NCBI GenBank assembly: GCA_964016885.1
Contig: OZ024743.1
Location: forward strand, 317,254,001-317,318,000
Reading direction: 5' to 3'
DNA: 64,000 nucleotides
From: Eledone cirrhosa
Lineage: Eukaryota
Numbering within the stretch: position 1 is the stretch's first letter; every line of letters starts with the position of its first letter. The notes beneath the pieces are model-generated. The model did not search any database. It had not been told where the DNA came from and worked only from the letters and a program-made list of their open reading frames with translations. This document shows positions 56,662-57,423 of this stretch, piece after piece. A program made the translations under genes and the position numbers.

Positions 56662-57423
56662 ATATGATAATAATGATGGCTGCGCGTTGCAAATGGTGGT
56701 GCATATGAAAAAGTGAGTCCTTCATCAGTGACCCTCCAACCGTCCCAGGCATTTCATCGCTTTAAGGGCCATATGCCTCAGGTTGGTGCGAACAACGGCT
56801 AAAAAAAGTCGTTGGGACACGTAAATAAAGGGGACGTTAGGGTAACAAACAAAATGGTTTAAGCAACGGAAAGTGAGAAGAAATAGACAAGTCCCAGATC
56901 TCTATGAATATAAACTCAGTGAAATCGTGAACAAGAGACAAAAGACCATCAAACCTGGTTGAAATGTAAGCAAGGAAAGAATTTCGCACAAGTCTAACGG
57001 GGGGGGGGGGAGAAGAAGAAGAAGAAGGGGTCTGGTCTACGAATTCGGTAAACATAAGTTTTGTGAAGTCGCAGACGAAAGAGAGAGAGAAAAAAAATTC
57101 CATACCAGCTTGGCCAGGACGCGCGAGAAAAGAATTACACACAGGTCAAACTTGAAGGAGGAGGAGAGGTAGTGACAGAGAATGAGTGAGTGAAAGTTGA
57201 GGAGGAGGCTAACAGAGAGAGAGACTGCTAGAAAGGGTAAAAGGTACAAAGAACGAGAAAGGGTAAAGGTACAAAGGACGAAACGGACGGGTAGCAGCAG
57301 AAGAAAAATTATGTGTAAATATGATAATAATGATGGCTGCGCGTTGCAAATGGTGGTGCATATGAAAAAGTGAGTCCTTCATCAGTGACTCTCCAACCGT
57401 CCCAGGCATTTCATCGCTTTAAG
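56662..57423 (-). mobile_element. Non-coding element with 105-bp direct repeats (657-bp period)
   Basis: 56662-56766 equals 57319-57423 with one mismatch; (TA)n on both flanks; strand inferred from a G.U-compatible pairing. Confidence 0.8.

Follow-up and report, generated by a model that had tools for sequence, protein, structure and literature searches.

A probable hammerhead ribozyme of S-G-C block order with a rebuilt stem II in a retrozyme-like, Penelope-type element

When the minus strand of the window (the whole 64,000-nucleotide stretch of DNA analysed here) was read, a complete insertion could be delimited at positions 56660..57423. It is made of a 657-bp non-coding unit and a 108-bp repeat of the unit start, and lies in (TA)n-rich DNA. 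The repeat (57316..57423, minus strand) is 5'-truncated; it starts 5 nt after the cut predicted below and is without block S, the cut-site block. It carries one stem I change, at 57390, and the ribozyme cannot form in it. The optional 3' tail of the insertion occupies 56660..56705 on the same strand. The target tract of the insertion is the (TA)n at positions 57424-64000 of the window, approximately 6.5 kb long, which includes units of the GCATATAT type. At 57255-57290 the plus strand carries GGAC-GAAAC, a motif usual in classical hammerheads; in a tandem transcript, the complement of this motif on the minus strand might base-pair with the nucleotides that follow CUGAUGA. The carrier is a retrozyme-like, Penelope-type non-autonomous element and is probably a satellite of the Naiad type.

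Other repeats lie nearby. An intact 1040-aa ORF with an APE endonuclease, a reverse transcriptase and a PHD finger is present at 49272-52394 (minus strand). It belongs to an RTE-type LINE with a GAT-repeat tail, decayed relatives of which are found at 4471-6642 and 9672-12105. Short GAT-tailed repeats at 55800-56344, 53988-54393 and 26325-26926 share the 3' sequence of the LINE, are set in (TA)n and are likely its SINE-like partners. We rejected the 1040-aa ORF as the carrier, since it is an APE-RT LINE and is split off from the insertion by (TA)n tracts and other repeats. Fragments of Penelope-type ORFs near copies, at five pairs of loci (L010/L077, L049/L078, L016/L080, L036/L081 and L050/L079) were also set aside, as none is followed by the ribozyme. 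No ORF combining an N-terminal GIY-YIG nuclease and a reverse transcriptase was found within the insertion or joined to the copies examined.

Copies were searched for in a 3.0-Gb genome. The window region gave 835 first-look candidates, and nearly all of the 40 that were scored are 99-100% identical. A genome search with a diverged family gave 1657 candidates. With both of these families excluded, a 34-place pattern yielded 11,888 matches compared with 9 for the reversed control, and a looser pattern for other families yielded 1241 compared with 199. Among the copies, the 5' end is truncated to varying extents, 5' inversions occur, and tandem arrays reach at least 15 units. One such array (L085, G000:C1:132610000-132619900) has at least 15 tandem units of the window family in an alternating two-unit pattern, which suggests a later satellite-like amplification. 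In older subfamilies, copies in the same insertion are often closer to each other than to other copies, which is compatible with either a circular or a tandem template; the window subfamily is too young for the same comparison. The ribozyme core described below occurs 53 times in 30 partly overlapping loci, and continues into another unit in 20 cases and ends in (TA)n in 33. The 3' ends of these 33 form two clusters, 14-16 nt after CUGAUGA in 5 and 52-70 nt after it in 28, with a query that favoured long tails. The two clusters match the optional tail of Penelope-like elements, which has been explained by reverse transcription that starts at two internal sites (PMC11167929).

The original prediction had placed a pseudoknotted RNA on the minus strand at 56690..56816, and re-reading of the sequence found every pairing that it proposed at its minus-strand coordinates. 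The helix between CCAACC (56786-81) and GGTTGG (56741-36) was borne out, as was the seven-pair helix, with one G.U, between the loop TGGCCCT (56771-65) and AGGGTCA (56735-29). The upstream CAACG/CGTTG hairpin (56814-56793) is also present. Of the enclosed helix AGGCAT (56778-73)/ATGCCT (56752-47), the inner pairs stand but the outer A-U pair is probably unformed, because across 28 aligned copies its 3' letter varies (T in 15, A in 9, G in 4) while the A is constant in 27; this fits the kink-turn described below. The alternative pairing GCATATG/CATATGC exists in the window copy but is not generally conserved, being absent from several lineages when the alignment is inspected by eye.

Two motifs had been overlooked, CTGATGA at 56728-22 and GAAA at 56755-52 of the minus strand. 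With them a hammerhead core is complete. An unpaired A56772 stands between AGGCAT and TGGCCCT, the last A of GAAA opens ATGCC, and CTGATGA follows directly 3' of the AGGGTCA arm; the spacing of the core to stems I and III is exact. The pseudoknot of the original prediction is hammerhead stem I, and the stem that it encloses is stem III. From 5' to 3' the blocks run cut site (56772), GAAA (56755) and CUGAUGA (56728). This S-G-C order is outside the three classical circular permutations and is the type SGC of Eckert et al. 2023. We are confident that minus-strand positions 56818-56717 carry a full hammerhead core in this non-circular order, with covarying helices and a cut predicted after A56772. 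By analogy to known hammerheads, the scissile bond would be that between 56772 and 56771, after the A of an AUA triplet and at the 5' edge of the loop that had been flagged. A descriptor consisting of the two stems and the core motifs matched once in the window; over 100 shuffled windows, it matched once with a 5-bp stem I and not at all with a 7-bp stem I.

The copies used for alignment came from 110 distinct segments (89 clusters), of which 78 had an intact upstream part and 28 differed at more than four positions. Most of these were gathered through the core letters, and the rows are related single copies. A second set of 30 loci was picked by an anchor outside the core, about 10 of which overlap loci retrieved before. 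In this set 26 loci could be aligned; the core is intact in 20, has one private change in 5 and a deletion in 1. In two of the four unaligned loci the upstream part is rearranged, and the GAAA and CUGANGA that follow it are intact. The nucleotide at the cut site is A or C and never G, both in the 28 copies (14 A, 14 C) and in the 26 outside-anchor copies (12 A, 14 C). Block G (GAAA, 56752..56755, minus strand) and block C (CUGAUGA, 56722..56728, in the form CUGANGA directly 3' of the stem I strand) are kept in the copies. The last A of GAAA pairs with the U before the cut site as an A-U pair in 28/28 copies, and this U lies outside the search patterns by which copies were gathered. Also invariant (28/28) is the UAA linker (56764-62) that joins stem I to a stem II strand. 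Stem III (56748..56777; GGCAU 56777-73 with AUGCC 56752-48, including the A15.1-U16.1 pair) is paired in 95.7% of cells, and one of its five pairs has changed on both sides. In stem I (56729..56771; UGGCCCU 56771-65 with AGGGUCA 56735-29) five of seven pairs change on both sides.

Stem II is predicted to be rebuilt. The classical direct form holds for one pair only, A56721 with U56756 on the minus strand, and this pair covaries: it is A-U in 9 copies, U-A in 9, U-G in 4, C-G in 1 and unpaired in 5. Beyond it the strands oppose G to A and then G to G or A. In the 28-copy model, the two strands pair with upstream strands Z and X instead of with each other. Strand Z (GUCC, 56815..56818, minus strand) pairs with GGAC (56720-56717) just 3' of the core, and its variable pair is G-C in 15 copies, A-U in 9 and unpaired in 4. 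Because Z pairs upstream, the ribozyme RNA begins at approximately 56818, just beyond the span first proposed, so that the predicted complete ribozyme of the covariation model covers 56717..56818 (minus strand). Strand X (UCGCA, 56787..56791) pairs with GCGA (56760-56757), immediately 5' of the U that precedes GAAA; its helix is 88.6% paired, with 1/5 pairs changed on both sides and an A.A as the fifth pair in the window copy. Between Z and X lies the covarying hairpin P0 (56793..56814), three of whose eight pairs have changed on both sides and which forms an arm of the predicted four-way junction. According to this model, such a junction, composed of the single direct pair, the Z helix, P0 and the X helix, would replace stem II, and stem II would stack on the core. 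An earlier pairing of an upstream GUU with the GAC after the core was abandoned, as P0 and Z account for both strands.

Upstream CCAACC is the partner of the strand that precedes stem I on its 5' side, and their pairing lengthens stem III across an internal loop. The resulting extension helix (56736..56786; CCAACC 56786-81 with GGUUGG 56741-36, minus strand) has changes on both sides in five of its six pairs. In a kink-turn, two helices are separated by a 3-nt bulge and, after it, tandem G.A and A.G pairs. The internal loop (56742..56780, minus strand) fits this consensus, with UGA (56780-78) facing a 3-nt bulge (56747-45) and GAC (56744-42), and the G and A letters concerned are kept in 25-26 of the 26 outside-anchor copies. 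The letters thus point to a kink-turn in the stem III extension. By bending it, such a turn would let the crossed strands reach the core.

Across the 28 diverged copies, 91.2% of the 1036 cells of the 37-pair model are paired, compared with 30-45% for slid registers, and 18 of the 37 pairs have changed on both sides. Compensatory changes are therefore present among genomic copies, as the original prediction had proposed to check. They fall in stem I, stem III, the extension helix, P0, Z, X and the single direct pair of stem II. Parsimony on a tree requires at least 25 separate Watson-Crick swaps, with every helix represented. None of 500 shuffles scored as high as the model on four of five measures, values that overstate significance, since the sequences tested are those in which Z and X were first recognized and the copies are related to one another; on the fifth, further pair types, 325/500 shuffles did, which is no excess over shuffles. 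In an unguided mutual-information scan the top-ranked column pair and three of the top four are model pairs, and many high-ranking pairs lie outside the model. The covariation of stem III and X is thin, as both vary little.

A second superfamily of different sequence keeps six helices. In 12 copies picked by eye from 30 loci, 87.9% of cells are paired and 12/36 pairs change on both sides. There is no direct stem II pair, and the kink-turn consensus is not clearly kept. In its members (L145, L139, L153, L154 and relatives) the cut site reads GUU or GUA, and the two flanking bases are engaged by Z and X. Further divergent families (L167, L168, L169, L172, L174 and L175) carry GAAAC and CUGANGA at the same spacing, and some of them show stems I and III by eye. 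At another locus (L179, positions 4514 and 5040, plus strand), two repeats 526 bp apart, which lie within a transposase-like region, carry GAAAC and CTGATGA motifs.

The folding energy is ordinary, with z-scores of -0.7 to -1.25 for three minus-strand segments. The lowest-energy nested fold of the window copy is without stem I, Z or X, and therefore misfolding is possible. A local hairpin in the computed minimum-energy fold, GGGUC/GACUC, was rejected, as it is paired in 53.6% of cells and does no better than slid registers. These energies bear on a reading that we consider unlikely, in which the fold is real and hammerhead-derived but depends on a helper (the element's own protein, a factor that binds the kink-turn, or another copy of the RNA) or chiefly provides the binding site that places the reverse transcriptase on the tail; the naked monomer would then cleave to a negligible extent. 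The competing folds of lower computed energy would agree with it, as would a stem II of at most one direct pair and fixed 3' ends 15-70 nt from the core. In a Poseidon element, moreover, the hammerhead is described as protein-assisted, and hammerhead mutants had no effect on insertion in vitro (PMC11167929). Across the superfamilies, however, the helix sequences turn over while the catalytic letters persist and the cut position stays non-G, and this counts against a pure binding role because binding alone needs none of these letters. A need for a helper would still be compatible with cleavage in vivo.

That the complementarity arose by chance in a repeat and was amplified by copy number, with no selected RNA structure, is very improbable and largely refuted. 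Copy numbers are not independent evidence, and the ordinary z-scores and the gathering of most aligned copies via core letters would allow such a reading, but it does not account for the compensatory swaps, for the same helices in the second superfamily and, by eye, in Naiads of different phyla, or for a core that is kept in the outside-anchor copies while the control hairpin is so poorly paired.

The original prediction had noted a likeness to twister, and this did not hold up: a Rfam search gave nothing relevant and no ribozyme match, whether at E<=10 or at the gathering score, and what stays invariant is the set of hammerhead core letters. The likeness is limited to the impression of a compact double pseudoknot. 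Twister and the other Rfam families were ruled out by the absence of matches, and a type I hammerhead is excluded by the S-G-C order together with the blank Rfam search.

It had also been proposed that the RNA sets the 5' end of the element. The end of the window copy, 57423, does lie inside the flagged loop, as at a period of 657 it equals 56766, which is 5 nt to the 3' side of the predicted cut. A (TA)n junction at the cut or in the 15 nt that follow it was found at 68/1811 anchor sites, compared with 41/2784 in the upstream control window, an excess of approximately 2.5-fold (Fisher p 1e-6) on the strand that lists each site once, with one control window and anchors that cover different subfamily mixes. 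The junctions near the cut are scattered over the whole 15-nt window, and about 96% of anchor sites have none; most copies are 5'-truncated elsewhere. A hand count of the first 40 sites listed gave 10 that start at the cut and 10 that start 7 nt later, with TA microhomology at both positions. In 9/15 matches to a cut-site pattern, (TA)n abuts the cut site itself; several of these nine true junctions belong to short inserts that extend from the cut as far as the tail. The excess near the cut thus stands but a sharp, defined end does not; as the enrichment is only about 2.5-fold, the cut does not define the 5' ends. Such a pattern would agree with cleavage of a minority of the templates, or with stalling at the structure, and not with a defined end. 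The reading of a twister-like ribozyme, or one of an entirely new class, with a cut that determines the 5' end could draw on the double-pseudoknot topology, the start of the window copy, the junction excess and the direct junctions at the cut site, but given the blank Rfam search, conserved letters that are exactly those of the hammerhead core, the equal number of starts 7 nt away and the great majority of sites without a junction, it is the least credible reading of all.

We thus return to the hammerhead. The conserved, pseudoknotted and probably self-cleaving minus-strand RNA of the original prediction is supported by core letters that are kept and by helices that covary, and we hold it very probable that the element RNA is a genuine hammerhead ribozyme, a type SGC variant with a new wiring. 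Since all of the hammerhead catalytic letters are present, in a scrambled, knotted order, the window RNA likely cuts itself.

Hammerheads of type SGC cleave in vitro, according to the available part of Eckert et al. 2023 (PMC10085705). As described there, they share with the window RNA the block order S-G-C, the core CUGANGA, GAAA and UH, a linker of approximately 3 nt between stem I and the stem II strand, and two core pseudoknots. The same portion of that source also gives differences. Published type SGC has a direct, multi-pair stem II between blocks C and G, whereas the window RNA has one pair and two helices with the upstream domain; the published form also has a helix between the far sides of these two stems, I and II, which the window RNA lacks; and the published average length is 65 nt, compared with approximately 102 nt here. 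HRIMA-1 comes from soil, spruce and sludge RNA, whereas the window motif sits in an animal-type genomic repeat. In the portions of the literature compared, none of the tested hammerheads has a stem II of the window design. A 2026 paper (PMC13725137) mentions variants with extra helices, without detail in its accessible part, and the corresponding part of the source that it cites (PMC10162972) contains no such variants. No published description of the window variant was found; subscription papers, preprint supplements and parts of other supplements could differ.

As a carrier, the element resembles the metazoan non-LTR retrozymes described in the accessible parts of PMC7229834 and 10.64898/2026.07.22.740005, which are non-coding tandem repeats with one hammerhead per unit and a link to Penelope-like elements. 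Those retrozymes have type I hammerheads and units of 150-450 bp and were shown to make circular RNA; the window element has a predicted S-G-C hammerhead and a 657-bp unit. In the part of Craig et al. 2021 available to us (PMC8557442), Naiads share with the element the (TA)n targets, partial tandems, 5' inversions and optional tail, all of which were found here; these traits are not diagnostic of Naiads, because they are common to other Penelope-like clades. Naiads carry an ORF, whereas the window element has none. The same part reports Naiads as lacking canonical hammerheads and notes unexplained 'HHR_core' and 'half core' motifs. In the portion of its supplement that we compared, four records (Naiad_Obim, Naiad_Ovul, Naiad_Plae and the one preceding Naiad_Plae) have this wiring at their 3' ends when read by eye: Z, P0, X, stem III, stem I and the core follow one another as in the window element, with other letters. 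Naiad_Obim and Naiad_Ovul count as one case, as they are nearly identical there. Two exact patterns for the Naiad ORF gave 0 matches in the genome, a weak test of absence, and none was present in 13 extended loci of the divergent families. As no Naiad ORF was found in the genome, the Naiad-type helper is one that we infer.

We propose that the minus-strand RNA would fold into the hammerhead active site and cut after A56772. In tandem transcripts each unit would be cut once to give 657-nt monomers, perhaps ligated into circles as in animal retrozymes. A reverse transcriptase of Penelope type, probably Naiad type, supplied in trans, may then start at the fixed tail sites and insert the copies into (TA)n. 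The cut would process the RNA and account for only a minority of the DNA 5' ends. A wider proposal, on which our judgement is evenly balanced, is that an undescribed hammerhead, non-circular, with a four-way-junction stem II and a stem III kink-turn, is an active and ancient ribozyme of Naiads and their satellites across animal phyla and makes circular templates for reverse transcription.

The model offers a single bond and six helices for testing. A hammerhead that takes its stem II from separate strands would be a natural conditional switch for RNA engineering. Non-circularly permuted hammerheads have been published mainly from environmental RNA. If the proposal is true, a rewired topology would be common in animal genomes, with more than 10,000 genomic copies, while being invisible to standard models, as the blank Rfam search illustrates. 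It would also overturn the report of Naiads without hammerheads, a lack that has served as an argument for the dispensability of the ribozyme in Penelope-like elements.
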